This document shows, piece after piece, positions 4,731 to 46,442 of a stretch of DNA of 64,000 bases. Below the pieces are notes generated by a model. It ran no database searches and had not been told where the DNA came from. It worked only from the letters and a program-made list of their open reading frames with translations. The first letter of the stretch is position 1. Each line of letters begins with the position of its first letter. Source of the DNA: an uncultured Actinomycetes bacterium (GTDB lineage Bacteria; Actinomycetota; Acidimicrobiia; IMCC26256; DASPTH01); NCBI GenBank assembly GCA_963720785.1, contig CAVRGQ010000009.1:695813-759812 (forward strand), read 5' to 3'. Both the position numbers and the translations under genes were made by a program.

Positions 4731-6404
4731 CAGTCGTTCTCGTCGGCTTCGGCCGCCGGATCATCGGCGTCGTCGTCGAGCCGGTGCATCTCGTCGGGCG
4801 CGTCCACGCCGAGGATCGCGAGCGCGCCGGCGAGGCCGAGGCGGCACGCCTCGGCCAGCCACAAGCGGGCCTGGGTGAGCGCGGCGTCGTCGGAGATGAC
4901 CTTGCAGTCGCGGTAGAAGCCGTGGAACGACTTGGCGAAGTCGCGCACCCACGTGGTGACGCGGTGCGGCGCGCGCAGTGCGGCGGCCTCCTCGAGCACA
5001 CCGGGGAACGCCTCCAGCGCGCGGAGCAGCTCGATCTCGCGCTCGTGCACCAGTGGCGCGAGTGACGTGTCGAGCAACGGCAGGCGCGTGACCCCGCGTT
5101 CGGCGGCCTTGCGACCGATCGACGCGATACGCGCGTGCGCGTACTGCACGTAATAGACGGGATTCTCCATCGACTGCGCGGTGACGACGTCGAGGTCGAA
5201 GGTCTGCGCGGTGTCGATCCCCTGGAGGAGGAAGGTCAGGCGCACGACGTCGGGATCGACCTCGTCGAGGATGTCCTCGAGCGTGATCACGTTGCCGGTG
5301 CGCTTGGAGATCTTCACCTCCTTGCCGTCCTTGACCAGCTTGACCAGCTGGCCGAGCAGCACCTCGGGCTCGCCGGCCGCGAAGCCGAGCGCCTCGAGGC
5401 CAGCCTGCACCGACTTCACCTGGCCGTGGTGGTCGGCGCCCCAGATGTCGATGAGGTGCTCCCACCCGCGCTCGAACTTGGAGCGGTGGTAGGCGAGGTC
5501 GTTGCACAGGTAGGTGGTCGCGCCGTCGCTCTTCACCAGCACGCGGTCGCGCTGGTCGCCGAAGTCGGTGGTACGCAGCCACACCGCACCGTCGCGCTCG
5601 TCGACCACACCGCGGGCGCGCAGGTCGTCGAGCACCCTCGCCACCGCGCCGGATTCGTGCAGGGTGCGCTCGGAGAACCACGTGTCGAAGTGCACGCCGA
5701 TGCGGCCGAGGTCGTCCTGCAGCGTGCGCACGACCTCCCGGTAGCCCCAGTCGCGCGCCTGCTCGGCAGTGACGGCGTCGCCTAGCTCGTCGCGCATCTG
5801 GGCCGCCATGTCGACGAGGTACTGGCCCTGGTACCCGTCCTCGGGCAGCTCCGTGCCGGCATAGCGCGCGATGCAGCGACGCCGCGAAGATGTCGAGCTG
5901 GTTGCCGGCGTCGTTGAGGTAGTACTCGCGGTGCACGTCGGCGCCCTGCGACGCGAGGAGGTTCGCCAACGCGTCGCCGACGGCGACCCAGCGCGCACCA
6001 CCCGCGTGCAACGGGCCCGTCGGGTTGGCCGAGACGAACTCGAGGTTGATGCGCGCACCTTCGAGGGTGCGGCCGTGCCCGTAGCCCTCCCCCTGTGCGA
6101 CGACGCCCCGCAGCACGTCGTGCAGCCACGTGGGCGAGAGGAAGAGGTTCAGGAAGCCGGGGCCGGCGATCTCGACCCGCTCCAGGCCGGCGGGGCGCTC
6201 CCGCTCCAACTCGGTGACGAGCTTGGCCGCGATGTCGCGGGGCGCCATCCCCACGGTCTTCGTGAGCTGCATGGCGACGTTGGTGGTGAAGTCGCCGTTC
6301 GCGGAGTCCTTCGGCGGCACGAGGTCGACCCCGGCCGGGGGCACGGGGAAACCACAGGCGTCGAGTGCGTGGTGCACGGCGGCGAGCAGAAGGTCACGGA
6401 TCAC
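4730..6404 (-). pseudogene. argS: arginine--tRNA ligase, reading frame broken once (+1) near 5870-5876; probably a sequence error
   Basis: The N-terminal part reads in the frame of ORF 4761..6794 (GTG at 6404: VIRDLLLAAVHHALD, FVSANPTGPLHAGGAR, YYLNDAGNQLD). The C-terminal part reads in the frame of ORF 4730..6058 (ARYAGTELPEDGYQGQY ... ENPVYYVQYAHARIASI). The junction on the minus strand is GCG TCG CTG [C] ATC GCG CGC TAT. Length is 1675 nt = 3n+1. Confidence 0.85.
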
Positions 6405-6905: not shown

Positions 6906-7492
6906 GCCTCGACGAGCTCGAGCTCGAGCTGCGCCGCCTCCGGGGCGTGCTCGCCGTGGGGTTCCAGGAGTCCGACGGCTTGCTGCTCGTGGAGCTGCAG
7001 GCGGGCGCCGACGCCTACCCCGAGCTGGCGCGCGACGCCACGCTGATCGCCAACCAGGGCGCCGTCGGCCCCGTGGCCGTCGAAGTCGTCCGCTGGGGCG
7101 ACCGCGCCAGCACCCCCCGCGAGACCCGCCTCCGCCTCGTCGAGATCACCAGCGACCCTGCCATCGGTGAGCTGCAGGTGCGCCTCGCGCTCGGCGACGA
7201 CGAGGGCGTGGGCCGTGCGTCCACCGACCACGGACTGCTCGCTCCGGTCGAGGCCACCGTCGCCGCGATCCGCGTGTTCCTCCCCGAGTTGCGCTTCCTG
7301 CCGGGGTGGGCGCGTCTCGTGGAGACCACGCCCGACCGCCGGTTCCTCGTGGTCGCCTCGGTCACCGACCCCGACGCGCAGGAGCACCGGCGCGGCGCCG
7401 CCGAGGGCGCCTCGCCGGTCGCCGCCGCCGCCCGGGCCACCCTCGCGGCGCTCAATCGCACCATCGCGCTCGACCTCGCGCCCCTGCTCTGA
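6902..7492 (+). CDS. hypothetical protein (196 aa)
   Basis: Clean ORF with strong GC3 bias, translationally coupled to the upstream ORF. I recognised no motif. Confidence 0.55.
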   Translation: MSLDELELELRRLRGVLAVGFQESDGLLLVELQAGADAYPELARDATLIANQGAVGPVAVEVVRWGDRASTPRETRLRLVEITSDPAIGELQVRLALGDDEGVGRASTDHGLLAPVEATVAAIRVFLPELRFLPGWARLVETTPDRRFLVVASVTDPDAQEHRRGAAEGASPVAAAARATLAALNRTIALDLAPLL

Positions 7493-7510
7493 AAAACAGG
7501 AACCTCGTTC

Positions 7511-7539
7511 TTGACTGGGGCCGGCGGCGGGGCCAGACT
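7511..7539 (+). promoter_or_regulatory. candidate promoter for a leaderless TetR transcript: -35 TTGACT (7511-7516), 17-nt spacer, -10 CAGACT (7534-7539)
   Basis: The hexamers were read directly. The -10 ends 8 nt before the GTG start at 7548, and no Shine-Dalgarno sequence lies between them. Confidence 0.3.
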
Positions 7540-7547
7540 GCCGCCCC

Positions 7548-8204
7548 GTGTCCACCGGCGCCACCCTCCCGCTGACTCCCACCACGCCCGCCCAGCGCCG
7601 GCGCCGTGACCTGATCCTCGACACCGCGGTCTCGCTCGTCGAGGAGCGCGGCCCCGACGGCTTCCAGGTGCGCGAGGTGGTCGAGCGCTCCGGCGTCGCC
7701 CTCGGCACGATCTACCGGTACTTCCCGTCGAAGGACCACCTGATCGCCGAGGCGCTCGACCGCGCGACCTCCGACCTGCGCGAGCGCCTCGCGGTCGCCA
7801 CGCGCGACGGCCAGGGCACCGACCCCGCCGAGCGGGTCGCCGTGCTGCTGCAGATCGTCGCCGAGTCCATGGAACGCCGGCCCGGGAACGCCCGGGCGTC
7901 GCTCCAGCTGCTGTTGTCCGCCGACCCGATCGCCGAGGTCGCCCAGCACGACTTCCGCGACGCGTTCGGCGCCGCGCTCGAACTCGCGCTCGCCGACGTC
8001 GAGCCGTCGCTCGCGACCGATCTCAGCGTCGTCGCGTCGTCGTTGCTCACCGAGCACCTCGTCGCCGTCGCAACCGGCCGGCCGAGCGTCGGCGGCACCG
8101 ATCTCCAGATGGAGCGCGGCATCCGAGTGCTGCAACTCGCGATCTCCCGTTCGCGGCCCCCTTCGCACCCAACCGAGTCGAACCGAACAAAGGAAGCACC
8201 ATGA
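7548..8204 (+). CDS. TetR/AcrR family transcriptional regulator
   Basis: 218-aa ORF with the N-terminal HTH FQVREVVERSGVALGTIYRYFPSKDHL. Its stop overlaps the next ATG (ATGA at 8201-8204). Confidence 0.9.
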   Translation: MSTGATLPLTPTTPAQRRRRDLILDTAVSLVEERGPDGFQVREVVERSGVALGTIYRYFPSKDHLIAEALDRATSDLRERLAVATRDGQGTDPAERVAVLLQIVAESMERRPGNARASLQLLLSADPIAEVAQHDFRDAFGAALELALADVEPSLATDLSVVASSLLTEHLVAVATGRPSVGGTDLQMERGIRVLQLAISRSRPPSHPTESNRTKEAP

Positions 8205-9562
8205 CCGACAACTCACCCAGGTACACGGACGCGCCCCGATACGCCGACCGCATGTTCCCCGCGCCGGTCGACCACGGCATCGCCCGCGACGACCGTGCGC
8301 AGAGCACCGTGCTCTCCGGCACCGACGCCGAGTCACTCGGCGGCGGCGAGAACGAACTCTGGTACCACGGTGGTGGCCGGGTCGGCGAGCGACCGGTCGA
8401 GAGCATCACCGTGTACCCGCCGACGCGCGGCCTGCAGACGCAGGGCGACCCGTTCGAGCCGGTGAAGATCGGGATCCTCATCGACATGGACTCCGGCCAG
8501 CTCATCTTCGACTGGGTGAACGCGACCATCCTCGCCATCGAGGACGCGCTCAACGAAGGCGTGTACGACCGACCGGTCGAGATCATCGTCCGGGACGCGC
8601 GCGGCCTCCCGCGCGAGAACTACCTGAAGGTGCGCAAGGGGTACCTCGACCTCGTCGAGCGCGGCTGCGTGGTGATCGTCGGCCCCGAGATCTCCGACAA
8701 CGCGGTCAATCTCATGGACCTGATCAACGAGACCGGTGTGGCCTGTCTGTCGTGGACCGGTGCGGTGCGGTTCTTCGGTGAGTACTGCTTCACCGTGGCC
8801 AACGGCGACATCGGCGTCGAGGGCGGGATGGGCGCCAACTGGTGCGCGCAGCAGGGGTACAAGAAGGTCGGCTTCTTCTGGGAGAAGGGCTCGTCGGGTA
8901 CCGACTACGCCGACTTCTTCCGGCTCGCCGCCGCAACGTACGGCCTCGAGATCGTGAAGGAGGTCGCGCTCGGCCCGAACCCTCGCAACATGGAGGAGCA
9001 CCTCGCCACCATGCGCGCCCAGGGCGCCGAGGCGATCGTGTACATGGGCTACGGCTACGCCACGTTCCACTTCGCACGCGCGTTCAAGGCGCTCGACTGG
9101 GACCCGCCGCGCTTCATGGGCACCGCGTTCATGTTCTACAGCAACACCAACGAGTGGGCCGAGGGCCTCGAGGGCTGGCACGGCGTCGACCAACTCGGCG
9201 TCGACGGTGACAACCCGAACTACGAGGCGATGCTCCAGCGCTTCGAGAAGCGCTTCGGGCGGGTGTCGCGCAACGTCGTGGTCGCGCTGTCGTACGACTC
9301 GGCCCGGGCGGCGATCCACGGCATCGCCAACGCGACCATCGCCATCCCGAAGGAGGTCAAGAACGGCCTCGAGAAGATCAAGTGGATGCCGACCACCAAC
9401 GGTGGGCCCGGCTGCTACCTCACCTTCTCGCAGTACGACCACCGCGGGTACAAGGGCGACTTCCTCACCATCCGCGAACTGCGAGGCGGTGAGCTGCACT
9501 TCCGCGGCTACCACCGCCCGCAGTGGCCGTCGAACCGCTCGTCGCCGATCCTCGACGACTGA
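8201..9562 (+). CDS. type-I periplasmic-binding-protein fold (Leu/Ile/Val-binding / AmiC-like) protein without a signal peptide
   Basis: 453-aa ORF. The PBP1-like core starts at about residue 95 (VKIGILIDMDSG ... VIVGPEISDNA ... YMGYGY). The first 95 or so residues are hydrophilic with no hydrophobic signal segment. An AAAGGAAG RBS precedes the start. Confidence 0.75.
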   Translation: MTDNSPRYTDAPRYADRMFPAPVDHGIARDDRAQSTVLSGTDAESLGGGENELWYHGGGRVGERPVESITVYPPTRGLQTQGDPFEPVKIGILIDMDSGQLIFDWVNATILAIEDALNEGVYDRPVEIIVRDARGLPRENYLKVRKGYLDLVERGCVVIVGPEISDNAVNLMDLINETGVACLSWTGAVRFFGEYCFTVANGDIGVEGGMGANWCAQQGYKKVGFFWEKGSSGTDYADFFRLAAATYGLEIVKEVALGPNPRNMEEHLATMRAQGAEAIVYMGYGYATFHFARAFKALDWDPPRFMGTAFMFYSNTNEWAEGLEGWHGVDQLGVDGDNPNYEAMLQRFEKRFGRVSRNVVVALSYDSARAAIHGIANATIAIPKEVKNGLEKIKWMPTTNGGPGCYLTFSQYDHRGYKGDFLTIRELRGGELHFRGYHRPQWPSNRSSPILDD

Positions 9563-9588
9563 CCACCGGCTCCACCGCAATCCGGACA

Positions 9589-9641
9589 CGGGCCCCCGCC
9601 TCGCCGGGGGCCCGTCCGCGCCAGCTGGGCGCGGACGGGCC
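9589..9641 (+). terminator. two overlapping GC-rich hairpins after the PBP-like gene
   Basis: Hairpin 1: CGGGCCCCC (9589-9597) pairs with GGGGGCCCG (9606-9614). Hairpin 2: GGCCCGTCCGCGCC (9609-9622) pairs with GGCGCGGACGGGCC (9628-9641). The two share 9609-9614, so they are mutually exclusive. There is no U-tract. Confidence 0.45.
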
Positions 9642-9698
9642 GTGACGCGTTACTTTCCTTGGTCAACAAGACCGCGGAGTCCAGGCAAGAGGAGCACC

Positions 9699-10677
9699 GT
9701 GAGCGAAGTCCGCGAGATGACCATCCAGTTCCCGTACAAGCGGTCCCTCGGACCGGTCGTCGGGGCGTTCATGACCGCTCTCACCGAGCAACGGATCATC
9801 GGCATCCGTTGCGGTGACCGCGTCATCTGCCCCCCGATCGAGTGGGACCCCGCAACCGGCGACGAGCTCGCCCACGACTTCGTGGAGGTCGGCCCGGCCG
9901 GCACCGTCGAGTCGTGGAGCTGGGTCGCCAAGCCGTCGGAGCAGCACCCCGTCGACCACCCCTTCGGGTTCGCGCTGATCAAGCTCGACGCCGCGACCAC
10001 GAGCATCCTGCACGCGGTCGACGCCGGCTCGATCGACGCGATGTCCACCGGCATGCGCGTCGCACCTCGCTGGCGGGGCACCCGAATCGGGCACATCAGT
10101 GACATCGAAGCCTTCGTGCCGGGTGAGAGCTTCCGAGGTCGCCGGCGACGACACCGGCCCCGCCGAGGCCCCGGTCGAGATGATGGACTACAACGCGTCC
10201 ATCGCCTACACGCTGCCGGTCACCGCGAACGAGCTGCGCGCCGAGCAGGCGAACGTGGAAGGTCGCTTCCTCGGCCTGAAGTGCCCCAAGTGTGGGCGCC
10301 TCTACACGGGTGGCCGCGGCTTCTGCCCGATCGACTCGATCGAGCTGGGCGAGGCCGACGAGGTCGACCTCCCGCAGAAGGGCGTGATCACCAACTACAC
10401 GATCATCGAGCCGGTGCCCTACCCCGGCCAGACCATGACCGAGCCGTTCGCCCGGGTGATGGTGATGCTCGACGGCGCCGACATCGTCCTCGGGTACCAG
10501 CCCACCATCGACCTCCCGGTCGCCGACCTCCACATCGGCATCCGGGTGGAGGCGGTGTGGGCCTCCGACGCCGAGCTCGACGACCTCGCCTCCACCGCGG
10601 AGGGCCGCCTCCTCGGGTGGATCCCCACGGGTGAGCCCGACGTGACCGACCCCGACCTCGTGAACAGGATCTACTGA
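9699..10677 (+). pseudogene. tandem DUF35 (Zn-ribbon/OB-fold) protein, frame broken once (+1) near 10128-10133
   Basis: GTG at 9699 follows an AAGAGGAG RBS. The first OB-fold half reads in the frame of ORF 9207..10634 (MTIQFPYKRSLGPVVGAFM ... DIEAFVPGE). The second half, with the zinc ribbon CPKCGRLYTGGRGFCP, reads in the frame of ORF 10099..10677. Length is 979 nt = 3n+1. Confidence 0.75.
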
Positions 10678-11747
10678 TGCCCAACGCAGACGACATCGCG
10701 ATCATCGGGTGGAACGTGTCCCCGATGGTCCGTCACACCGACAAGACCGAAGCCCAGATGCTGCTCGAGGTCTGCAGCGGCGCGGTGGAGCACGCCGGCA
10801 TCACCCGCGCCGAGATCGACTTCACCTGTGCGGGCAGCTGCGACTACGTCGCCGGCCAGGCCTTCTCGTTCGTGCAGAACATCGACGCCCTCGGCGCGTG
10901 GCCGCCGAAGCGCGACTCGCACGTCGAGATGGACGGTGCGTGGGCGATGTACGAGGCGTGGCTGCGGCTCCAGATCGGCGACATCGACACCGCGCTCGTC
11001 ATGGGCTCGGGCCGGTCGTCCACCGCTGACCCGACCCTCATCTACCCGATGGAGATGGACCCCTACTACCTCGCGCCGCTCGGCACCGACGCCACGTCGT
11101 TCGCCGCGCTGCAGGCCCGGGCGCTCATCGACGCCGGGCAAGGTCACCGAGCGCCAGATGGCCGAGGTCGCCGCCCGCACCCGGCGTGACGGCAAGGACA
11201 GCCCGTACGCGCAGGTGACCGGCGACTTCGACGTGGACACGCTCCTCGCCGAGGAGTACGTGAACGCGCCGCTGCGCCGCCACGACCTGCCGCCGATCAC
11301 CGACGGCGCGTGCGCGGTCGTGATCGCCCGCGCCGACCGCGCCCGGGAACTGTGCGAGCAACCCGGTGTGGATCACCGGCTTCGCTCACTACACCGAGGC
11401 GCACTACCCCGGCGTGCGCGACCTCACCGAGTCGCCGTCGATCGACCCTCGCCGCCAAGGCCGCAGGCGTCGACGAGGGCCCGATCGAGGTCGCCGAGAT
11501 CCAGGCGGCGTACACCCACGAGGAGCCGCTGCTCGTGGAGGCGCTCGGCCTCGGCGCCGACGTCTCCGTCAACCCGTCGGGTGGCCCGCAGGCCGCGAAC
11601 CCGATCATGGCCACCGGCCTCGTGCGCGTCACCGAGGCGGCGCGCCAGATCCGTGACCTCGGCAAGTCCCGCACCCTGGCCCACAGCACGTCGGGCCCCT
11701 GCCTGCAGCAGAACCTCGTCTGCGTGCTCGAAGGAGACGCGAAGTGA
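10677..11747 (+). pseudogene. thiolase-like (SCP-x/Ltp-type) protein, three +1 frame breaks (about 11139, 11363, 11443)
   Basis: The protein is recovered by reading frame 0 (MPNADDIAIIGWNV ... ALIDAG), then frame 1 (KVTERQMAEVAARTRRDG ... RELCEQP), then frame 2 (VWITGFAHYTEAHYPGVRDLTESPSI), then frame 0 again (TLAAKAAGVDEGPIEVAEIQAAYTHEE ... NPSGG ... LVCVLEG). Each junction shows one extra base. Confidence 0.75.
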
Positions 11748-12913
11748 GCCACCAGCCGTGCGCCATCGTCGGGATCGGCCAGACCCACCACAAGAAGGCG
11801 CGTCGTGACGTGTCGTTCGCCGGCCTCGTCCGCGAAGCCGCGCAGCGGGCGCTCGACGACGCCCACATGACGTGGACCGACATCGACGCCGTCGTGGTCG
11901 GCAAGGCGCCCGACCTGTTCGAGGGCGTCATGAAGCCGGAGCTGTACCTCAGCGACGCGCTCGGCGCGACCGGCAAGCCGATGTTCCGCGTGCACACCGC
12001 CGGTTCGGTCGGCGGCACCACCGGCATCGTCGCGTCGCACCACGTCGAGACCGGGCGCTTCGAGCGCGTGCTCGCGGTCGCGTTCGAGAAGCAGTCGGAG
12101 GGCAACGCGCAGTTCGCCCTCGGTTCGGGCAAGAGCGGATCGCTCGGCGCCGGCGGCGCGTTCGCTCCGTACATGCGGTCGTACATCGCCCGCAGCGGTG
12201 CCCCGATGGACGTCGGCCCGATGGTCGCGGTGAAGGACCGTCTCAACGGCTGCAAGAACGAGTATGCGCACCTCAAGCTCAAGGACATCGACCTGGCGAC
12301 CGTCAAGGCGTCGCCGATGCTCTGGGATCCCGTGCGGTTCCTCGAGTCGTGCCCGTCGTCCGACGGCGCGTGTGCGGCGATCTTCACCAACGAGGCCGGG
12401 GGCAAGGCCGCGGCGGCCGACGGCCGTCAGCCCGCATGGATCCTCGGGTCCGCGGTGCGCTCCGAGCCGTCGACCTTCCCGGGCCGCGACCCGGTCCGCC
12501 CCCAGGGTGCGGTCGACTGCGCGTGGGACGTCTACGGCCAGGCCGGCATCACCAACCCGCGCGAGCAGATCGACTGCGCGGAGCTGTACGTGCCGTTCTC
12601 GTGGTACGAGCCGATGTGGCTCGAGGCCCACGACATCGCCGCACCCGGCGAGGGCTGGCAGATGACCGAGCGGGGCGACACCGCGCTCGGCGGCTCGTTC
12701 CCGGTCAACATGTCGGGCGGCGTGCTCTCGTCGAACCCGATCGGCGCGTCGGGCCTGCTCCGCTTCACCGAAGCGGCGCTGCAGGTGCGGGGCATGGCCG
12801 GCGAGCACCAGGTGGAGGGCGCCAAGGTCGCCCTCGCCCAGGCCTACGGCGCTGCCGCGCAGTACTTCTCGATGTGGGTCGTGTCGAGCTCCCTCGACCC
12901 CTTCGGCAACTAG
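11744..12913 (+). CDS. thiolase-like (SCP-x/Ltp-type) protein
   Basis: 389-aa intact ORF whose GTG overlaps the upstream stop. It has the thiolase-fold C-terminal motifs NMSGGVLSSNPIGASG and GAKVALAQAYG. At the usual nucleophile-Cys position it reads HTAGSVGG (alignment by eye). Confidence 0.85.
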   Translation: MSHQPCAIVGIGQTHHKKARRDVSFAGLVREAAQRALDDAHMTWTDIDAVVVGKAPDLFEGVMKPELYLSDALGATGKPMFRVHTAGSVGGTTGIVASHHVETGRFERVLAVAFEKQSEGNAQFALGSGKSGSLGAGGAFAPYMRSYIARSGAPMDVGPMVAVKDRLNGCKNEYAHLKLKDIDLATVKASPMLWDPVRFLESCPSSDGACAAIFTNEAGGKAAAADGRQPAWILGSAVRSEPSTFPGRDPVRPQGAVDCAWDVYGQAGITNPREQIDCAELYVPFSWYEPMWLEAHDIAAPGEGWQMTERGDTALGGSFPVNMSGGVLSSNPIGASGLLRFTEAALQVRGMAGEHQVEGAKVALAQAYGAAAQYFSMWVVSSSLDPFGN

Positions 12914-12930
12914 CCCCACCCTCTTCTCTT

Positions 12931-12981
12931 CGAACCGGCGTCAATCCCTGCCCACTATGGGCTCGGATTGACGCCGGTTCG
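12931..12981. repeat. 51-bp nested palindromic element, copy 1 (also a likely bidirectional terminator)
   Basis: CGAACCGGCGTCAATCC-CTGCCCACTATGGGCTC-GGATTGACGCCGGTTCG. The outer arms are 16-17 bp and the centre is an inner palindrome GCCCA-cta-TGGGC. It lies between convergent genes ending at 12913 (+) and 13006 (-). Confidence 0.85.
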
Positions 12982-13005
12982 TCGCGTCAGGCCGCCCGGT
13001 CGTGG

Positions 13006-13773
13006 CTAGGCCATCCAGACGCCGGAGTTGACGTCGAGGGTCTGGCCGGTGATCGAGCGGGCGCGCGCGGACGCGAGGAACACCACCGCGTCGGCGAGGT
13101 CGTCGGGGGTCGGGAGCCGCCGCAACGCCGTGTCCTTCGCGTAGTGCGCGAGCACCGCGTCGACGGTGGTGCCGCGCCGCTCGGCCTGCCGGGCGAACAT
13201 CTCGTCGGTGTTCGGGCCGGGCACGAACCCGGGCAGCACGATGTTGACGCGGATGTTCTCGGGGCCGACCTCCTTGGCCAGCGTCTGCATCGCGAGCTGC
13301 AGGGCACCCTTGGTCGCGGCGTACGCACCCTGCCCCGGGTTGACGGCCCGCACCGCGAGCGTGGACACCGCGACGATCGCGCCCCCGCCGGCCTCCTGGA
13401 AGTGCGGGATCGCGGCGCGGCACAGCTCGAGCGGGCCGAGCACGTTGACCTCCCACGCGCGCTGCCAGTCGGCAAGATCGGCGTTCACGATCGTGTGGTT
13501 CGGACTGCCCTTCGCCGCACTACTCACCACCACGTCGAGCCGGCCCAGCTCGGACGCGGCCCGCTCGACCAGCGCACGGCACTGCCCGACGTCGCCGGTG
13601 TCGGTCGGCACCACGAGCGCTCGACGGCCGAGCGCCTCGACCTCTGCGGCCACTTCCTCGAGGTACGACTGCGTGCGCGCCGCGAGGGCCACGTCGCACC
13701 CGTCGCGCGCGAGGCCCAGGGCGATCGATCGCCCGATGCCCGGCCCGACGCCCGTCACCACTGCCACTCTCAT
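13006..13773 (-). CDS. SDR family oxidoreductase
   Basis: ORF 13006..13860 trimmed to the ATG at 13773 (GGAGGTG RBS): MRVAVVTGVGPGIGRSIA..., with YAATKGAL. Its ATG overlaps the stop of marR (ATGA). Confidence 0.9.
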   Translation of the reverse strand: MRVAVVTGVGPGIGRSIALGLARDGCDVALAARTQSYLEEVAAEVEALGRRALVVPTDTGDVGQCRALVERAASELGRLDVVVSSAAKGSPNHTIVNADLADWQRAWEVNVLGPLELCRAAIPHFQEAGGGAIVAVSTLAVRAVNPGQGAYAATKGALQLAMQTLAKEVGPENIRVNIVLPGFVPGPNTDEMFARQAERRGTTVDAVLAHYAKDTALRRLPTPDDLADAVVFLASARARSITGQTLDVNSGVWMA

Positions 13774-15114: not shown

Positions 15115-15165
15115 CGAACCGGCGTCAATCGCTGCCCATAATGGGCACGGATTGACGCCGGTTCG
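15115..15165. repeat. 51-bp nested palindromic element, copy 2 (also a likely bidirectional terminator)
   Basis: CGAACCGGCGTCAATCG-CTGCCCATAATGGGCAC-GGATTGACGCCGGTTCG. About 47 of 51 positions match copy 1. It lies between convergent genes ending at 15099 (+) and 15168 (-). Confidence 0.85.
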
Positions 15166-24572: not shown

Positions 24573-26027
24573 GTGGAGTTCCTCCCCAGCCGTGAGGTGC
24601 GCGAGGTGCGCGAGCACCTCGACCACCCCGTGATCGACAGCGACGGCCACCTCATCGAGTACGTGCCCCTGGTGCGCGACTTCCTCGTGGAGGAGGCGGG
24701 CGAGAGCGTCGCGCAACGCTTCGACCGGTTGTCGTTCGCCGGCGCGGCCCGCAAGGCGATCCCCGACCCGATGGCGCGCCGCAAGGTGGGGCTGCACGCG
24801 GTCGGGGTGTGGGGCATCCCCACCGAGCACACGCTCGACCGCGCCACCGTGATGGTGCCCGAGCTGATGTACCGCCGCCTCGACGAGCTCGGCATCGACT
24901 TCGCCGTGCTGTACCCCACCTATGGCCTCACCGTCACCGCGCTCGGCGACGACGAGTTGCGGTGCGCGCTGGCGCGTGCGCTCAACCGCTACTACGCCGA
25001 GGTGTACGGCGGGCTGCGCGACCGCCTCGAACCGGTCGCCGCGATCCCCACCTTCACGCCCGAGGAGGCCATCGCCGAGCTCGACTACGCGGTCGGTGAG
25101 CTCGGACTCAAGGCGGTGATGATGGGCGGCGCGATTCCGCGTCGCCTCGACGGCGTCGACCCGGAGCGCGGCTCGAACGTGTGGATCGACACGCTCGGGC
25201 ACGGCTCGATCCACGACTACGACCCGGTCTGGCGGCGCTGCGAGGAGCTCGGCGTCGCGCCCACGTTCCACGCGGGTGGCCAGGGCTGGGGCACGCGCAT
25301 GTCGACCACCAACAACTCCTACAACCAGGTCGGCAACTTCGCGGCGGCGGCCGAGGGCACGTGCCGCTCGCTCGTGTTCGGCGGCGTGCCCCTGCGCTTC
25401 CCCAACCTGCGCTTCGCGTTCCAGGAGGGTGGCGTCGCGTGGGCGTCCGCGCTGCTCGGCGGGATCATCGGCCATTTCCAGAAGCGCCGCCGTGACGAGA
25501 TCGTGCACTACGACCCGGCGCGGCTCGACTTCGCGCAGCTCGACGCGCTGTTCCGCGAGCACGCGACCGGCGCGATCGCCGACCGCATCGACCGCCTCGA
25601 CACCGGACTGCGCATCCTCTCCGACCCCGACGAGATCGAGCGCGACGTCGACATGTTCGGCGAGTCGCTCCTGCAGTCGGAGGAGCAGCTGCTGGAGATG
25701 TTCTCGCAGCGGTTCTTCTACGGCTGCGAGGCCGACGACCCGATGAACGCGCTCGCGTTCGCCACCGACCTCAACCCCGGCGGCGTGCGCCTCCCCGCGG
25801 TGTTCGCCTCCGACGTCGGGCACTGGGACGTGCCCGACCTGCGCGGCGTGTTGCCCGAGGCCTACGAGTTGGTCGAGCACGGGCACGTCGACGAGCAGCA
25901 GTTCGCCGACTTCGTGTTCGCCAACCCCGTACGGCTCTGGGCCGGGGGCAACCCCGGCTTCTTCGCCGGCACCGTGGTGGAGGACGCCGCCGCCGCACTG
26001 GTTCCCGAGTCGGCTACGGCGTCGTGA
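24573..26027 (+). CDS. amidohydrolase-2 family protein
   Basis: ORF 24408..26027 trimmed to the GTG at 24573 (CAGGAG RBS). It has VIDSDGHLIEY (HxH-type metal site), TFHAG and FASDVGHWD. Confidence 0.8.
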   Translation: MEFLPSREVREVREHLDHPVIDSDGHLIEYVPLVRDFLVEEAGESVAQRFDRLSFAGAARKAIPDPMARRKVGLHAVGVWGIPTEHTLDRATVMVPELMYRRLDELGIDFAVLYPTYGLTVTALGDDELRCALARALNRYYAEVYGGLRDRLEPVAAIPTFTPEEAIAELDYAVGELGLKAVMMGGAIPRRLDGVDPERGSNVWIDTLGHGSIHDYDPVWRRCEELGVAPTFHAGGQGWGTRMSTTNNSYNQVGNFAAAAEGTCRSLVFGGVPLRFPNLRFAFQEGGVAWASALLGGIIGHFQKRRRDEIVHYDPARLDFAQLDALFREHATGAIADRIDRLDTGLRILSDPDEIERDVDMFGESLLQSEEQLLEMFSQRFFYGCEADDPMNALAFATDLNPGGVRLPAVFASDVGHWDVPDLRGVLPEAYELVEHGHVDEQQFADFVFANPVRLWAGGNPGFFAGTVVEDAAAALVPESATAS

Positions 26028-27342
26028 GGTCCGCGTCGAACGTGTAGCGGTTCTTGGTCGCACAGTCGAAGGTGCCGGCCTTCGTCGGGTACACCCGGTG
26101 GAACGCGCCCTTGTTCCACTGGATGAGCGCGAAGCAGCTCGACGGCACCTTCGCACCGATGTCGACCTTGCCGGTCATCCCGTCGGCGTCGAACGCGTGG
26201 AGCCCCTGCAGCGCAGTGAGCAGCGACACGCGCGTGAGACCACTCGCACCCTTCGTCGCGGTGTCGGCCGCTTCGCGGAACGCGAGCACGGCGGTCCAGC
26301 CGTACACCGCGAAGGCACTGAGGTTGTCCTTGCCGACGTACTTCACGAACGCGGCGAGCGTCTTGTTCGTCTTGGCCTCGGCGAACGGCAGGAACCCGAG
26401 CGGCATGTACTCGCCGTCCATCGCCGAGCCGGCGGCCGCCATCTGCTGCTCGTCGTAACACGCGCTCGTGCAGCTCCACACGATCTTCGGGTCGGTGAGG
26501 CCCTGCAGCGCAGCTTCTTGCCGGATGAGGATCGCGCCGGGCGCGGCGAGCCCGTTGTCGGAGAAGTTCGCGCCGTCCTGCTTCATCTGGTTGATGATCG
26601 ACGTGTACGCGCTCTGCGGGTCGCGGTTCGACAGCGAGGGCGTGTCGGTGACGGTGATGCCCGCGTGCTCCGCGGCCTTGATCGACACGTCGGTGGAGCG
26701 GGTCGCGTCGGGCGAGTCGCTGGTGCGGATCACCGGGCCGTGCAGCTTCGCGTTCTTCGCCACGAAGTACTCGTACTGGCCCTGCTGCACCCGGTACGTC
26801 TGGGGCACCTTGCCGACGGTCGCGCAGTCGATCATCGCCGGCGTAACGGGGAACGAGGTCGCGGCGCAGGCCTGCGGGGTGCCGAGCACGATGGCACCGA
26901 TGTCGGGCAGGCCGGTCGCCGCACCCGCCTGGTCCTTGCAGCCCACCATGTCCTCGAGGCCGCTGAACAGCGCGGTGGCCGTGCCCACCATCGCCACGTC
27001 CTGGCCGCAGGCGGTGATCACCGCGTTGCGCACCTGCGTGGGGTTGAGGTGCGAGTCGATGAAGTCGACCACGAGCTTGCGCCCACCGGCCACACCCCCG
27101 GTCTTGTTCACGTACTTCGCCGCCGCCTGGGCGCCGTCGACGACACCCTTGAACACGCCGGGCGCGATCGGGTTGTCGACGTCGGCGATCACGGCGACGT
27201 GCACCGACGACGTGTCCACCCCGATCTCGGTGGCCTTGCCGCTCGCCGCACCGGCACTCGGTGTCGCCACCATCGCCGTCGCGGTGGCGACGATGACCGC
27301 CAGGACGATCAGCACTGTCCGTTTGGTTCGCTTGCTCTCCAC
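26014..27342 (-). CDS. secreted type-I solute-binding protein (branched-chain amino acid/amide ABC SBP family), no transporter partner (SBP-1)
   Basis: 442-aa ORF. The signal peptide is MESKRTKRTVLIVLAVIVATATAMVATPSAGAAS. A PBP1 core follows (VHVAVIADVDNPIAPG ... GGRKLVVDFIDSHLNP) with many Cys residues. Confidence 0.85.
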   Translation of the reverse strand: MESKRTKRTVLIVLAVIVATATAMVATPSAGAASGKATEIGVDTSSVHVAVIADVDNPIAPGVFKGVVDGAQAAAKYVNKTGGVAGGRKLVVDFIDSHLNPTQVRNAVITACGQDVAMVGTATALFSGLEDMVGCKDQAGAATGLPDIGAIVLGTPQACAATSFPVTPAMIDCATVGKVPQTYRVQQGQYEYFVAKNAKLHGPVIRTSDSPDATRSTDVSIKAAEHAGITVTDTPSLSNRDPQSAYTSIINQMKQDGANFSDNGLAAPGAILIRQEAALQGLTDPKIVWSCTSACYDEQQMAAAGSAMDGEYMPLGFLPFAEAKTNKTLAAFVKYVGKDNLSAFAVYGWTAVLAFREAADTATKGASGLTRVSLLTALQGLHAFDADGMTGKVDIGAKVPSSCFALIQWNKGAFHRVYPTKAGTFDCATKNRYTFDADLTTP

Positions 27343-27380
27343 GGTTCCCCCCTCGGATACCTGTGAACGGATCGGATCGG

Positions 27381-28550
27381 TCAGGTGCGCGACGGCGCCG
27401 GCAGCTCCGGCGGCACGTCGTAGCGATCGGAGTAGGCGGCGAAGCGCTCACGGATCTCGCCCGCATCGAGGCCGTACTCGGCCAGGTCGTACCGATGCGC
27501 GCCGAAGCGACCCTTCGGGTTGCGCTGCGCGTAGTCGGTGATCGCGCCGTGCGCTTCGCCGGTGAGCTCGTCGCCACACGCGGCATAGATGCGCGCGACC
27601 GTGCCCGCCGGATCCGCGACGAGGTCGGCGTACTGCACGTCGACGATCGGGCGCTCCGGGTGCGCGGCACGGAACTCGTCGATGCGGCGCACCGACTCCT
27701 CGAGCTTCGTGCTCCAGTGCCGCCCGACGTACTCACGGTGGTCGGCGTCGCTGAACGTGCTCGTGAGCGTGGAGATCAGGCCGCACACCGACCCGCACAG
27801 CACCACCGGGTCGCGGTGCAACAGCACCAGGTGGGCATCCGGGTACACCGAGGTCAGCGCGTCGAGCGCGATCGCGTGGTGCGGGCTCTTGAGCGTCCAC
27901 CGCCCACGGACGCCGCCGCTCTGTAGCACCTGCAACACCCGGCGGTGGTACTCGTACGCCGAACGCTGGTCGACGGCCATGAGCCACTCGTCGTAGGCCG
28001 GCACATTGGCGATCGCCTCCCACGAGAGGCTCTTGAAGTCCTGGGCCATCACCGAGATGTCCTCGGTCGCCTCGTCGGCCGCTTCGCGGTGCACCACGTC
28101 GACGCCCGGGTTCAAGGTCGACAACATCGCGTTGGCCGCGTGCACCGCGTCGACGCGTGGCCCCACGCGGTGTTCGGCGGGCGACGGCGGCGGCACGCTG
28201 TCCCCGGCCTCCCAGCCGAGCAGCGCGCGGTTCTGCGGGTCCTGGTCCAGCAACCGGCTGAGCAGCGTGGTCCCGGCCCGGAACATGCCGATCACGACGA
28301 TCGGCGCGACGACGGGCGCGGCCGCGACCTCGGGATGGGTGGTCCACCAGTCCTGCACGCGCAGCCGGTTCTGGAGCGCGGCGGTGAGCATCCCGGGGAA
28401 CGCCGCCTCGCCCACCGCGTTGAAGCGGGCCTCGCGGGTCGCGGAGTCGACGAGCACGTCGAGGCCCTCGCGGAAGTCCGCGGGACCGAGGTCGTCGAGG
28501 CCCGTGCCGGCACGGGCCGCAGCGACGATCTCGTCGACGTCGACGTTCAC
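27381..28550 (-). CDS. sulfotransferase family protein
   Basis: 389-aa ORF. It has a PAPS 5'-phosphosulfate-binding loop FRAGTTLLSRLL and a 3'-phosphate motif LLHRDPVV. Confidence 0.8.
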   Translation of the reverse strand: MNVDVDEIVAAARAGTGLDDLGPADFREGLDVLVDSATREARFNAVGEAAFPGMLTAALQNRLRVQDWWTTHPEVAAAPVVAPIVVIGMFRAGTTLLSRLLDQDPQNRALLGWEAGDSVPPPSPAEHRVGPRVDAVHAANAMLSTLNPGVDVVHREAADEATEDISVMAQDFKSLSWEAIANVPAYDEWLMAVDQRSAYEYHRRVLQVLQSGGVRGRWTLKSPHHAIALDALTSVYPDAHLVLLHRDPVVLCGSVCGLISTLTSTFSDADHREYVGRHWSTKLEESVRRIDEFRAAHPERPIVDVQYADLVADPAGTVARIYAACGDELTGEAHGAITDYAQRNPKGRFGAHRYDLAEYGLDAGEIRERFAAYSDRYDVPPELPAPSRT

Positions 28551-29429: not shown

Positions 29430-30774
29430 ATGCGCAAGTCCCGGTTCGCGGCCTTGGCCGCGCTCGTCACCGTGCTCGCGGTCGTCTTGTCGGCGCTCGC
29501 CGCCGGCGCCCAGACCACCACCACGGGGTCGGGTGGATCGAGCTCGTCGAAGAATGAGATCGGCCTCACCGACAAGGAGATCAAGATCGCCGTCCTCGCC
29601 GACGTCGAGAACTCCATCTCGCCCGGCCTGTTCAAGAAGTCGGTCGACGCCATGGAGGCGTGGGCCAAGGTCGTCAACAAGGCCGGCGGGGTCGCAGGTC
29701 GCAAGGTCGTGATCGACTTCCACGACACGAAGCTCAACCCCACCGAGACCCGCAACGCGATCATCCAGGCGTGCCAGGACGACTTCGCCACGGTCGGCGG
29801 CGAGTCGCTGTTCATGAGCAACGTCGACGACCTGGTCGGCTGCAAGGACGCCACCGGCGCCACGACCGGCCTCCCCGACGTGCCGGGCCTCGCGCTCGAC
29901 GTGTCCCAGAAGTGCTCGCCGGTCACCTGGCAGAACAGCGGCGACGCGACCTTCTGCGCGACGCGTGACCAGAGCCCGCAGACGTACCGCGCGCAGCAGG
30001 GCGAGTTCCTGTACTACACGAAGGTCAACAAGGACCTCCACGGCATCTGGACCCTGCCGAACGACCTCAAGGCCACGCGCGAACTCGGAGATCCCGATCT
30101 TCCAGGCCGGCGTGAACCTCGGGATCAAGGAGGACGGCCAGGGCTTCTACGACACCTCGGCGCGCAGCCAGCAGTCGGAGCTCACGCCGATCATCCAGGT
30201 GGTCAAGCAGAACAACTCGAACTGGGTCTACAACGGCAACAGCGCCGGCATCGCCGCCCTGCTCCGCAAGGAGGCCATCATCCAGGGCGTCAACTCGGTG
30301 AAGGTGTGGGCCTGCAACATCGGTTGCTACTCCACCGACTTCCTCGACGCCGCGGCCGGCGACGGCGAGGGCCAGTCGTCGGGCATCACGATGATGCCCT
30401 TCTACACGGAGTGGAAGAACAACCCCACGATGAAAAAGCTCGTCAACGCAGTGGGTGGCATCGAGAACGTCAACAGCAGCTCGGTGTCGTCGTGGATCGC
30501 GGCGATCCTCTTCCAGGACGCGGCCACCAAGGCGGCGGCCAAGGGCGCGCTGACCCGGAAGTCGCTGATGGCGGCGCTGGCCGAAGAGCACAACTTCGAC
30601 GCCGACGGGATCACCGGTCCCTTCGACGTCGGCGCCCACCAGCCGCCGCTCTGCTACGTGATGACCGAGGTCAAGAACGGGAAGTGGGTGCGCACGTACC
30701 CGAAGCAGGTCGGCAAGTTCGACTGCAACCCGAAGAACCTCGTGACCATCAAGCTCGACGTCAAGGACTACTGA
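29430..30774 (+). pseudogene. secreted type-I solute-binding protein (SBP-2), paralog of SBP-1, frame broken once (+1) near 30079-30084
   Basis: MRKSRFAALAALVTVLAVVLSALAAGAQ ... IKIAVLADVENSISPG ... DLKATR reads in the frame of ORF 29160..30797. It continues as SEIPIFQAGVNLGIKEDG ... VKDY in the frame of ORF 29965..30774. Length is 1345 nt = 3n+1. It is roughly 50% identical to SBP-1 by eye, with the Cys residues conserved. Confidence 0.8.
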
Positions 30775-43671: not shown

Positions 43672-44841
43672 TCAGGCCTTTGCTTCGCGAGCGCGGGCGA
43701 GGAGGCCACGCGCGATCACGATGCGCTGGATCTCGTTGGTGCCCTCGCCGATGATCATCAGCGGAGCGTCCCGCAGGTAGCGCTCCACCGGCAGCTCCTG
43801 GGTGTACCCCACGCCTCCGTGCACGCGCATCGACTCGGTGGCCACCTCGAACGCGGTCTCGCTGGCGAACAGCTTGGCCATGCCGGCCTCGACGTCGCAG
43901 CGCAGCCCCGCCTGTTTGCGCTCCGCCGCGGACACGGTGAGCAGGCGCGACGCCTCGATCTTCGTGGCCATGTCGGCGAGCTTGAGCTGGATGGCCTGGT
44001 GCTCCGCGATCGGCTTGCCCATCGTGACCCGCTGCTGCGAGTACTCAAGCGCGGCGTCGAACGCGGCGCGGGCCACCCCAACGGCGCGGGCGGCGATGTT
44101 GATGCGCCCCACTTCGAGCACGCCGAGGATCTGCGGCAGGCCGCGTCCGAGCTCGCCGAGCAGCGCGTCGGCCGGGAGCCGGTGCTCGTCGTACGCCATC
44201 TCGACCGTCTCGATGCCCTTGTACCCGAGCTTGGGGATGTTGCGCGACACCGTGAGCCCGCCGAACTTCGGCCCGGGCTCCTTCTCGACGATGAAGGCGG
44301 AGATGCCCTCCTCGGTGCGTGCGGCCAGCGCGACGATCCCGGCGCGCTCGCCGTTGGTGACCCACGTCTTCGTGCCGGTGACGACCCACTCGTCGCCGTC
44401 GCGCGCGGCGCGGCACTGGATGTTGCGGGTGTCGGTGCCCGCGTCGGGCTCCGACAGCGACAGCGCGCCCCGCACCTCGCCGGTGACCATGGTGGGCAGC
44501 CACTTCGCCTTCTGTTCGGCGGTGCCGAACGTGGTGATCAGCGTGGCGACCATCGTGTGCGTGTTGAGGATGCCCGACAGCGACATCCAGCCGTACGCGA
44601 GCTCCTCGATCACCCCGATGTAGGTGAGGAGGTCGAGACCGAGGCCGCCGTACTCCTCGGGCACGGTGATGCCGAAGAGGCCGAGCTCCTTCATCGTCTC
44701 GACGATCGCGGTGGGGAACTCGTCGGCGTGCTCGAGCTCGCTCGCGACCGGGATCACGTCGCGCGTCACGAAGCGGCGCACGGTCGCGATCATCTCGTCG
44801 CGGATCTCCGGATCCGTCGGCGTGTAAGTGGGCGAGGCCAT
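43672..44841 (-). CDS. acyl-CoA dehydrogenase
   Basis: ORF 43672..46128 trimmed to the ATG at 44841 (389 aa). It has LSEPDAGTD, and GGVGYTQELPVERYLRDAPLMIIGEGTNEIQRIVIAR with the catalytic Glu. Confidence 0.9.
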   Translation of the reverse strand: MASPTYTPTDPEIRDEMIATVRRFVTRDVIPVASELEHADEFPTAIVETMKELGLFGITVPEEYGGLGLDLLTYIGVIEELAYGWMSLSGILNTHTMVATLITTFGTAEQKAKWLPTMVTGEVRGALSLSEPDAGTDTRNIQCRAARDGDEWVVTGTKTWVTNGERAGIVALAARTEEGISAFIVEKEPGPKFGGLTVSRNIPKLGYKGIETVEMAYDEHRLPADALLGELGRGLPQILGVLEVGRINIAARAVGVARAAFDAALEYSQQRVTMGKPIAEHQAIQLKLADMATKIEASRLLTVSAAERKQAGLRCDVEAGMAKLFASETAFEVATESMRVHGGVGYTQELPVERYLRDAPLMIIGEGTNEIQRIVIARGLLARAREAKA

Positions 44842-45990
44842 CAGACGGTGAGGATGGAGACGCCGGCCGTGCCGGGGGCGCCATAGAGCTGGGTGTATCC
44901 GACCTTGGGCTCGTTGGGCACCTGCCGCTCGCCCGCCTGGCCCCGCAGCTGCAACACGATCTCGTGCACCTGACGCAGGCCCGACGCGCCGATCGGCTCG
45001 CCGTTGGCGATGAGGCCGCCATCGGTGTTCACCGGCAGCCGCCCACCGATCTCGGTCTCGCCGTCGAGGTAGAGCTGCTCCTGCTCGCCGTCGGCGCAGA
45101 AGCCGTTCTCGGCGAGGTGGATGATCTCCGCGCCGGCGTCGGTGTCCTGGAGCTGGATGACGTCGACGTCCTCCGGCCCGATGCCCGCCATCTCGTAGGC
45201 GGCGCGCGACGCGTCGACGGTGGGCGCCACCGTCTGCTCCTCGGGCAGCCACGTGCTGTGCACCTCGAACGCGCCGAGACGCCGCGTGCGCACCGTCGTC
45301 GCCCGCAGGTACACGGGCTTGTCGGTGTACTTGTGCGCATCCTCCGCCGGGCAGAAGACGACTGCCGCTGCACCTTCGTCGGGGCTGCAGAACATGTACT
45401 GCGTCAACGGATAGTTGAGCATCGGCGACTCGAGGATCTGCTCCTCGCTCATGGGCTTGCGCCGGAACGCGTTCTCGTTGAGCGCGCCGTTGCGCAGGTT
45501 CTTGTTCACGACTCGCGCGAGCGTCTCGTGCGAGATGCCGTGGTCGAGCATGTACTTGTTGATCTTCATCCCGAAGAACTTGGTGGTGAGGAACTCGCCG
45601 ACCTGGCCGTACCAGAGCGGGCAGGCGTAGTCGCGCGGGTCCGCGCTCGAACGCGCCCGGCGGGTGCTTGTCCATGCCCACCGCGATGCCGAGGCGGTGG
45701 TCGCCGAGGCGGATGGTGTTGGCCGCCATCGTCAGCGCGCTCGCCGCGGTGGCGCAGCCGTTGTACACGTCGGTGAACGGGATGCCGGTGAGGCCCATCA
45801 GCGCGACGACCGCGTCGGGATTGTCGACCTCGTAGCTCCCGCCGAACGCGAACTCGATGTCCTTCCACGCGACGCCCGCGTCGGCGAGCGCCCTGCGGAT
45901 CGCGACCGCACCCATCTGGATGCCCGACACGCCGGGGTGACGGCCGAACGGGTGGATCCCCACTCCCACGATGGCGACGTCCATGGCCAT
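44841..45990 (-). pseudogene. thiolase (SCP-x/nsLTP type, nucleophile Cys present), frame broken once (+1) near 45640-45645
   Basis: MAMDVAIVGVGIHPFGRH ... VYNGCATAASAL ... GMDKHPPGAFER reads from the ATG at 45990 (GAAGGAG RBS). It continues as DPRDYACPLWYGQVGEFLTTKFFGMKINKYM ... NTDGGLIANGEPIGASG in the frame of ORF 44841..45569. Length is 1150 nt = 3n+1. Confidence 0.8.
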
Positions 45991-45991
45991 G

Positions 45992-46438
45992 TCAGCTCTC
46001 CTTCGTGGGTGTGGCGGGCGCGAACGCGAACGACACGATCTCGTTGCCGTCGTCGTCGGTGCCGATCGGCAGGACGACCATCTCCAACTCGGCGCGGTTC
46101 GTGACCGCGGCGTTGAGCACGTCGGCATCGGTGGTGGTGAGGCGCGCCTCCACCTTCACCTCACCGAGGTCGACGAAGCCCACGCCGAACGGCACGAAGT
46201 CCTTGCCGACCGGGCCCACGTAGGGCGGCACGGGCGGCGGGAAGCTCTGCGTGGTCCACGCCCACAACGTGCCGCGGCGAGCGAGGAGGTGTTCCTCCAT
46301 CGCGATGGACGCACACCGCGGGCAGGAGTCCTGCACCGGGAAGGTGACGATGCCGCAGTCGGCGCACTTGCTGCCGATCAGTTGCGGGTCGTCGCCGGGC
46401 CACGTGAAGAGGCCCTCGGACACGGGGACCTGGGTCAT
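45992..46438 (-). CDS. DUF35 Zn-ribbon/OB-fold protein (thiolase partner)
   Basis: 148-aa ORF with the zinc ribbon CADCGIVTFPVQDSCPRC followed by an OB-fold (GTLWAWTT ... VGFVDLGE). Confidence 0.85.
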   Translation of the reverse strand: MTQVPVSEGLFTWPGDDPQLIGSKCADCGIVTFPVQDSCPRCASIAMEEHLLARRGTLWAWTTQSFPPPVPPYVGPVGKDFVPFGVGFVDLGEVKVEARLTTTDADVLNAAVTNRAELEMVVLPIGTDDDGNEIVSFAFAPATPTKES

Positions 46439-46442
46439 GCCG

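Follow-up and report, generated by a model that had tools for sequence, protein, structure and literature searches.

Five co-directional genes at positions 7511-12913 of a 64,000-nucleotide stretch of contig CAVRGQ010000009.1, from an uncultured Acidimicrobiia bacterium (the whole stretch, with a G+C content of ~71%, is referred to here as the window), encode a TetR-family regulator, a periplasmic-binding-fold protein without a signal peptide (PBP), a fused double-DUF35 protein and two thiolase-like proteins, T1 (10677-11747) and T2 (11744-12913). Our analysis indicates that the last three genes, 9699-12913 (the triad), probably constitute an operon of the Rv3521/Ltp4/Ltp3 type, encoding a heteromeric retro-aldolase that depends on DUF35, and that the TetR-PBP pair upstream is a separate unit. 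The five genes, as read on the plus strand of the window, and the elements associated with them are as follows.

7500..7547, plus strand: putative promoter/operator of the TetR-PBP pair, proposed from reading the sequence
7548..8204, plus strand: TetR-family regulator, 218 amino acids (Pfam TetR_N, TetR_C_20)
8201..9562, plus strand: signal-less type I periplasmic-binding-fold protein (PBP), 453 amino acids (Pfam Peripla_BP_6)
9563..9698, plus strand: 136-nt spacer with two perfect GC-rich hairpins (folding)
9699..10677, plus strand: fused double-DUF35 protein of the Rv3521 type, 325 amino acids once one inserted base (~10129-10132) is removed (frames, Pfam)
10677..11747, plus strand: T1, Ltp4-family Cys-less thiolase-fold protein, 355 amino acids once three inserted bases are removed (NCBIfam NF005924)
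11744..12913, plus strand: T2, Ltp3-family Cys-less thiolase-fold protein, 389 amino acids, intact (NCBIfam NF006180)
12931..12981, no strand assigned: 51-nt perfect palindrome between the convergent T2 and short-chain dehydrogenase/reductase (SDR) genes (pattern search)

Family membership and gene order of the triad

T1 passes the NCBIfam model NF005924 (PRK07937, 'lipid-transfer protein') with 467.6 bits against a cutoff of 419, over residues 5-353 of 355, and T2 passes NF006180 (PRK08313) with 588.4 bits against a cutoff of 514, over residues 2-383. The Pfam thiolase N- and C-terminal domains are recognized weakly in both proteins, which are 27% identical to each other. The three genes are tightly packed: an AGGAG ribosome-binding site precedes the GTG start of the double-DUF35 gene at 9699, and the junctions DUF35/T1 and T1/T2 overlap as TGATG and GTGA, respectively. 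Species-representative genomes were searched with an alignment of the double-DUF35 family, and a relative was found in at least 589 genomes. The carriers are mostly metagenome-assembled genomes (MAGs) of Acidimicrobiia, and they also include Frankia, Rhodococcus, Actinoplanes, Saccharomonospora, Nocardioidaceae, Streptosporangiaceae and a few Proteobacteria and Myxococcota. When gene order was surveyed in the best 80 loci of these genomes, the order double DUF35, T1, T2 on one strand was found in 77, and two of the three exceptions are cut at a contig edge.

The locus of Rhodococcus oryzae (L084) connects the triad to a described region. In this genome a double-DUF35 gene is followed by a gene for an NF005924 protein (628 bits) and then one for an NF006180 protein (741 bits). 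A divergent gene upstream of the double-DUF35 gene encodes a TIGR03559 'F420_Rv3520c' oxidoreductase (502 bits, cutoff 335). Beyond it, the upstream region contains genes for an EchA19 equivalog (433.6 bits, cutoff 400) and a PRK07798 acyl-CoA synthetase, together with a FadD17-like ligase and two acyl-CoA dehydrogenases. Judged from these assignments, the Rhodococcus locus has the gene order of Mycobacterium tuberculosis Rv3515c-Rv3523. In M. tuberculosis, one KstR operator serves both Rv3520c and Rv3521 (PMC1995591), and Rv3521 is a conserved hypothetical gene adjoining ltp4 (PMC9782250). The genes ltp3 and ltp4 are described, in the passages of PMC7807495 and PMC10832528 that cite Wilbrink 2012, as aldol-lyases needed for C24-branched sterol side chains. 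The double-DUF35 protein of the window aligns over residues 7-314 with the product of the Rhodococcus gene at the Rv3521 position. Taken together, the synteny in Rhodococcus and the family scores place the window triad in the Rv3521, Ltp4 and Ltp3 families.

The window triad shares with Rv3521-Ltp4 (Rv3522)-Ltp3 (Rv3523) of Mycobacterium and Rhodococcus the three families, their order, their sizes (~325, 355 and 389 amino acids) and the loss of the thiolase Cys. It differs in its host, an Acidimicrobiia bacterium, in the T1 motif QAAY, where most relatives have HAPF, and in its surroundings, which lack neighbouring FadD19, EchA19 and Rv3520c genes, a KstR operator and a steroid cluster. Indeed, none of these marks of a KstR-regulated sterol cluster (EchA19, FadD19, an Rv3520c-type gene or a KstR-operator feature near the triad) was found in the window. 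The M. tuberculosis Rv3520c/Rv3521 locus, sought through the published 26-nt KstR operator, had no exact match in the genome contigs searched. An exact copy of the T2 protein was not found in public assemblies.

In most Acidimicrobiia the triad stands alone. In Actinomycetes-type loci and in Streptomyces its recurrent neighbours are an enoyl-CoA hydratase and an AMP-forming ligase, an association consistent with a pathway in which a substrate is activated, hydrated and then cleaved by a retro-aldol reaction. By its family assignments and distribution, the triad is a known, NCBIfam-named and widely conserved module that is not confined to steroid-degrading Actinomycetes. Hundreds of genomes, from Acidimicrobiia and other groups, carry it as a free-standing operon, and its substrates probably extend beyond C24-branched sterols.

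The surveyed loci fall into two groups. Those of Acidimicrobiia (L015-L067) usually carry the triad alone, and those of Actinomycetes (L080-L092) carry it beside an EchA19-like hydratase and a FadD19-like ligase. Double-DUF35 proteins of the Actinomycetes type are 40-45% identical, and this type is also carried by Streptomyces, which is not known as a sterol degrader. In Saccharomonospora halophila (L091, 10001-11633) a T1 homologue is partly detectable and T2 was not found, though the contig continues; this locus may be a decayed copy of the triad.

Catalytic residues and proposed architecture

Catalytic residues were assigned from HMMER alignments to solved thiolase structures. In T2, the nucleophilic Cys of the SCP2-thiolase 6hsj (NNNCSTGS) aligns with Gly87 (HTAGSVGG), the HDCF motif is replaced by Y282-V-P-F, and the GHP motif by SNP, with Asn331 in place of the His. 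In T1, the Cys of the archaeal-type thiolase 7yvy aligns with Glu84 (VEMDG), the HDAF motif is replaced by Q275-A-A-Y, and an Asn again occupies the position of the GHP His. The alignments confirm the original prediction, made by eye, that EMDGAWAM of T1 and HTAGSVGG of T2 lie where a thiolase has its nucleophile, and they show that the catalytic set is intact in neither protein. Since the Cys, the HDCF/HDAF motif and the GHP His have all been replaced, neither T1 nor T2 can be a thiolase. These replacements are themselves conserved. The Gly/Tyr/Asn signature of T2 is kept in full-length relatives down to 33% identity, and the T1 motif SHVEMD(G/A)A is invariant in Acidimicrobiia, Rhodococcus, Streptomyces and a deltaproteobacterium, which argues that T1 is not simply degenerate. 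SCP2-type thiolases and the benzoylsuccinyl-CoA thiolase BbsAB share the fold of the window proteins, and BbsAB also its DUF35 partnership, but they differ in the catalytic Cys, HDCF motif and GHP His that are replaced in both T1 and T2.

The DUF35-dependent aldolases provide a closer comparison. In these enzymes the corresponding motif reads YDHF in Ltp2 and YDCY in Sal; its Tyr, present also in SLP, is the catalytic base (PMC12329534). Tyr282 of T2 occupies the first position of this motif, that of the HDCF His in 6hsj, whereas T1 has Gln there. The likeness to DUF35-dependent retro-aldolases that had been proposed for these proteins is sound, as is the loss of the thiolase catalytic set, and it can be sharpened to membership in the Rv3521/Ltp4/Ltp3 families. 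Like the window proteins, the steroid C3 side-chain aldolase Ltp2-ChsH2(DUF35) (PDB 6ok1) and the bile-acid aldolase Sal-Shy(DUF35) (PDB 9myr) combine a Cys-less thiolase fold with a DUF35 partner, and the catalytic-base Tyr is kept in T2. However, both solved enzymes are homodimers whose DUF35 is a domain of a MaoC hydratase, whereas in the window the thiolase-fold subunits are of two different kinds and the tandem DUF35 is a protein in its own right, with no MaoC domain, and sequence similarity to Ltp2 and Sal reaches only E values of 1e-8 to 4e-11.

The tandem nature of the DUF35 protein, also proposed originally, is borne out once the reading frame is corrected. Pfam detects two OB_ChsH2_C stretches and a zf-ChsH2 domain in the 325-residue protein, and homology is evident between the two halves (23% identity, E 6e-4). 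Zinc-ribbon ligands are present in the C-terminal half only, where Cys195, Cys198 and Cys209 are strictly conserved and Asp212 almost so; the ribbon is thus Cys3Asp in the window, compared with Cys4 in a Streptomyces homologue. The AlphaFold2 (AF2) model has a mean predicted local distance difference test score (pLDDT) of 87.7 and a predicted template modelling score (pTM) of 0.52, a combination that fits two well-defined modules of undefined mutual orientation. Its best structural matches are ChsH2-DUF35 of Ltp2 (6ok1) and Shy-DUF35 of Sal (9myr), and each module also matches the DUF35 subunits of BbsAB, PhlABC (PhlB), MucABC (MucB) and the archaeal thiolase/HMG-CoA synthase (HMGCS) complex.

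The last of these matches bear on an alternative in which the triad would act in condensation or acyl transfer, in the manner of PhlABC, MucABC or the archaeal thiolase/HMG-CoA synthase/DUF35 complex. Those systems also consist of two thiolase-superfamily proteins and a DUF35 protein, the double-DUF35 protein resembles PhlB, MucB and the archaeal DUF35 structurally, and the C-terminus of T2 matches PhlC (E 7.5e-16). PhlABC, MucABC and archaeal-type systems nevertheless need an active-site Cys in both the thiolase-like and the KAS III/HMGCS-like subunits, and this residue is missing from T1 and T2 alike. Moreover, HMG-CoA synthase models do not score above noise, FabH models fall far below their cutoffs, and the closest DUF35 structures are those of aldolase partners. 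On the missing Cys we rejected the PhlABC-like and thiolase/HMGCS-like readings, and we regard a condensing complex as highly improbable.

In the retro-aldolase that we propose, the Ltp4-like and Ltp3-like proteins would form a thiolase-fold heterodimer, and each half of the double-DUF35 protein would cap one protomer, giving a DUF35(N)-Ltp4-Ltp3-DUF35(C) heterotrimer with zinc bound by the C-terminal DUF35 half only. This arrangement is suggested by the solved complexes, which have one DUF35 per protomer, set against two fused DUF35 modules and two subunits encoded here 1:1:1 with overlapping codons; it would mirror the DUF35-enzyme-enzyme-DUF35 layout of Ltp2-ChsH2(DUF35) and Sal-Shy(DUF35). 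The complex would cleave a branched beta-hydroxyacyl-CoA, made by an enoyl-CoA hydratase encoded elsewhere, into a ketone or aldehyde and a short acyl-CoA, with Tyr282 of the Ltp3-like subunit as the base. Thiolysis would not be possible, because the nucleophilic Cys is missing from both subunits. The substrate is probably a branched lipid, isoprenoid or sterol-type side chain. The combination of a tandem DUF35 protein and two non-identical thiolase-fold subunits offers an architecture that can be tested, for an enzyme known from genetics and with no published biochemistry. The comparisons above establish the families of the proteins, the missing catalytic residues, the conservation of gene order and the synteny with ltp4-ltp3, whereas the stoichiometry of the subunits, the assignment of catalysis to one of them, the substrate and the regulation are inferred.

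Several observations weigh against this proposal. T2 has no counterpart to the second catalytic residue that the two solved aldolases use: Pro284 replaces the oxyanion-hole residue His296 of Ltp2 and the catalytic Cys304 of Sal, and Asn331 replaces Tyr344 of Ltp2. The invariance of SHVEMD means that catalysis may reside in T1 rather than in T2 with its Tyr282, or that T1 may contribute to it. Identity to the Rhodococcus oryzae proteins is low (43, 51 and 59% for the double-DUF35 protein, T1 and T2), and the link to the M. tuberculosis locus is anchored through Rhodococcus and not through the M. tuberculosis sequences themselves. In the window neither a hydratase nor a CoA ligase adjoins the triad, and canonical steroid genes are absent. 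Finally, the literature searched offers neither biochemistry nor a structure for an Ltp3-Ltp4-DUF35 complex, so that both the heterotrimer architecture and the aldolase activity rest on analogy and genetics.

Frameshifts in the assembled sequence

As deposited, the double-DUF35 gene lies over two frames, with one shift, and T1 contains three frame changes. The coordinates and gene order of the original prediction were correct, but its treatment of the fused DUF35 gene and T1 as readable open reading frames (ORFs) overlooked these four frameshifts. Single-base deletions near 10129-10132 in the DUF35 gene and near 11136-11139, 11359-11366 and 11442-11448 in T1 restore single proteins of 325 and 355 amino acids. 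Many proteins of 325 residues match the corrected DUF35 protein along its entire length (100%), the best being 93% identical. The closest genome, an Acidimicrobiia MAG (L014), is collinear with the window at 86-89% nucleotide identity. Precisely these four bases are missing from it, and its ORFs, of 329, 355 and ~389 amino acids, are intact.

Four frame-breaking single-base insertions within 1.3 kb could also be taken to indicate that the DUF35 gene and T1 are genuine pseudogenes of a module decaying in this host. We consider this very unlikely. Taken together, the three shifts in T1 return the gene to its frame, each segment encodes conserved protein sequence, and the corresponding ORFs of L014 are intact. 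Furthermore, wherever the first 20 kb of the window differ from L014 by an isolated change of frame, it is the window that carries an extra base (+1), mostly within a short G/C run, and frameshifts of the same type break the essential argS, the thiolase gene at 44841-45990 and several other genes of the window. The absence of the four insertions from L014 and the same damage in argS suggest that they are most likely sequencing or assembly errors. The +1 insertions relative to L014 are located at 5845-5873 (argS), 10129, 11139, 11359, 11442, 13300 and 13454, and one lies at ~45650 in the thiolase gene. These systematic, apparently erroneous insertions make pseudogene calls in the window unsafe, which matters to anyone who calls genes or pseudogenes in the assembly.

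The TetR-PBP pair and the surrounding region

The TGA stop of the TetR gene overlaps the ATG start of the PBP gene at 8201 (ATGA), as originally described, and the same overlap is present in L014. The regulator matches Pfam TetR_N (3e-15) and TetR_C_20. Its best NCBIfam model is KstR (NF033703), at 88.8 bits far below the cutoff of 280, and the KstR operator (TnnAACnnGTTnnA) has no match in 7300-13100; the assignment as KstR was rejected on both counts. Upstream of the TetR gene, the palindrome GGAACctcGTTC overlaps a -35-like hexamer TTGACT (7511-7516), with CAGACT 17 nt downstream, an arrangement that may represent an autoregulated and possibly leaderless TetR promoter with a GTG start. A scan for consensus promoters and terminators returned no sites and no canonical terminator.

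PBP matches Pfam Peripla_BP_6 over residues 87-415 (106 bits, cutoff 31.7), and the proposal that it lacks a signal peptide holds. The highest Kyte-Doolittle hydropathy over 15 residues in its first 100 amino acids is 0.57, compared with 2.74 for a secreted PBP of the window, and this region contains no twin-arginine (RR, Tat) motif, no Cys or lipobox and no hydrophobic segment. The N-termini of 65 homologues confirm the start codon, the ATG at 8201. The hydrophilic N-terminal extension is present and conserved, although it measures ~86 residues and not the ~95 given originally. It contains the motifs RMFPAPVDHGIA, WY.GGGR.GE and VYPPT.G..TQGDPFEPV. In the AF2 model of PBP (pLDDT 84.5, pTM 0.87), residues 11-40 and 61-80 of the extension are predicted at pLDDT 81-93 without regular secondary structure, which suggests an ordered strap on the domain surface.

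Members of the PBP family are ~450 amino acids long and 65-98% identical over 95-100% of their length, extension included; identity is 65-82% across Acidimicrobiia, Frankia, Streptosporangiales, Actinomadura, Actinocorallia and Trebonia. Their neighbours vary (L001, L008, L010, L107-L171) and include a P450, Amidohydro_2, acyl-CoA dehydrogenase, enoyl-CoA hydratase, a KshA-like Rieske oxygenase and SnoaL-like proteins, with no obvious conserved partner across the loci. No ATP-binding cassette (ABC) permease or ATPase gene was found in five Pfam-annotated PBP neighbourhoods or in the window. Foldseek with PBP retrieves binding proteins of the LivJ/K type and for aromatic acids and fatty acids, 13-19% identical to it. 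PBP has the fold of LivJ/K-type ABC substrate-binding proteins but differs from them in lacking a signal peptide and permease/ATPase neighbours. With AmiC it has the type I periplasmic-binding fold and the cytoplasmic location in common, and its 86-residue extension has no counterpart in either AmiC or LivJ/K. The label 'AmiC-like' is not supported, because AmiC is absent from the top 50 Foldseek hits and from the PDB sequence hits of PBP, and there is no AmiR/ANTAR partner. The presumed cytoplasmic location is supported by the sequence, and we conclude that PBP is a cytoplasmic binding protein that is independent of a transporter and accompanies catabolic clusters. The literature searched on cytoplasmic Peripla_BP_6 proteins yielded nothing specific. 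The unusual conservation of this family is unexplained and merits a ligand screen.

The original prediction treated the five genes as one uncharacterised system. Such a system would be a single regulon in which PBP senses a pathway substrate and, with TetR, controls the aldolase genes in the manner of AmiC/AmiR. The genes are indeed co-directional, TetR and PBP are translationally coupled in both the window and L014, and the five genes occur together in L014 and in three metagenome contigs. Yet all of these examples belong to one lineage. Among the 80 best triad loci, only L014 has a PBP orthologue (95%) and TetR (81%) beside the triad, and the other 79 have no PBP. In the reverse survey of 80 metagenome loci carrying the PBP family, the triad was found in only three, whose PBP is 97-98% identical to that of the window; none of the ~75 other PBP loci contains it, nor do the five Pfam-annotated PBP neighbourhoods. 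The PBP family, in addition, remains 65-82% identical across orders while its neighbours change, two perfect hairpins follow the PBP stop codon, and no shared operator was seen upstream of the triad. A five-gene regulon is accordingly unlikely. By these surveys the five-gene unit is specific to the lineage of the window, with TetR-PBP as a lineage-specific neighbour, so that the supposed novel five-gene system resolves into a known three-gene module and an unrelated neighbour. In the two-unit reading that we prefer, TetR-PBP would be a separate, translationally coupled unit that became a neighbour of the triad in this lineage only; its coupling is suggestive but unique to the lineage. A TetR and Peripla_BP pair beside the triad in another MAG, L005, was rejected as evidence of conservation, the genes not being orthologues (PBP E 0.95; TetR shares only the helix-turn-helix).

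The hairpin-rich 136-nt spacer noted originally is exact in length and contains two perfect GC hairpins, at 9588-9615 and 9609-9641, with a minimum free energy of -70.7 kcal/mol and a folding z-score of -2.6. The first hairpin is missing in L014. The spacer is likely a terminator without a U-tract or a processing site, and its hairpins probably end or attenuate the TetR-PBP transcript. A bolder scenario, to which we give little credence, makes PBP the founding member of a transporter-independent cytoplasmic family of type I binding proteins, acting as ligand sensor or substrate carrier, that was captured here by TetR through translational coupling to form a two-protein switch gating the Ltp3/Ltp4-type aldolase operon.

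The five genes are preceded by the housekeeping genes lysA and argS. Downstream lie genes for SDRs, MarR, a CMD-family protein and an aldehyde dehydrogenase, followed further on by Amidohydro_2 genes, two secreted PBPs, acyl-CoA dehydrogenases, a P450, a molybdenum hydroxylase and a Rieske oxygenase. The gene content is that of general catabolism rather than of a canonical steroid cluster. The two other Peripla_BP_6 genes of the window, at 26014-27447 (minus strand), with a classical signal peptide, and at ~29818-30774 (plus strand), which is frameshifted, adjoin Amidohydro_2, sulfotransferase and TauD-like genes; comparison led us to reject them as paralogues of the signal-less PBP.

The palindrome at 12931-12981 consists of 17-bp arms separated by a 17-nt loop (CGAACCGGCGTCAATCC-17 nt-GGATTGACGCCGGTTCG), and a diverged copy is present at 15124-15156. 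A search for this pattern gave three matches, compared with none expected in shuffled sequence, and each copy lies between convergent genes. Rfam has no hits in the whole window, the palindrome included. The element at 12931-12981 is likely a bidirectional terminator, or possibly a repeat of the repetitive extragenic palindromic (REP) kind.

A second DUF35 module, at 44841-48071 on the minus strand, encodes an acyl-CoA ligase of the FadD3 family (706.7 bits, cutoff 657), a single zinc-ribbon DUF35 protein and a thiolase-like protein. The latter has kept the nucleophilic Cys (NGCATAAS), carries QDTD for HDCF and GEP for GHP, and contains one frameshift.

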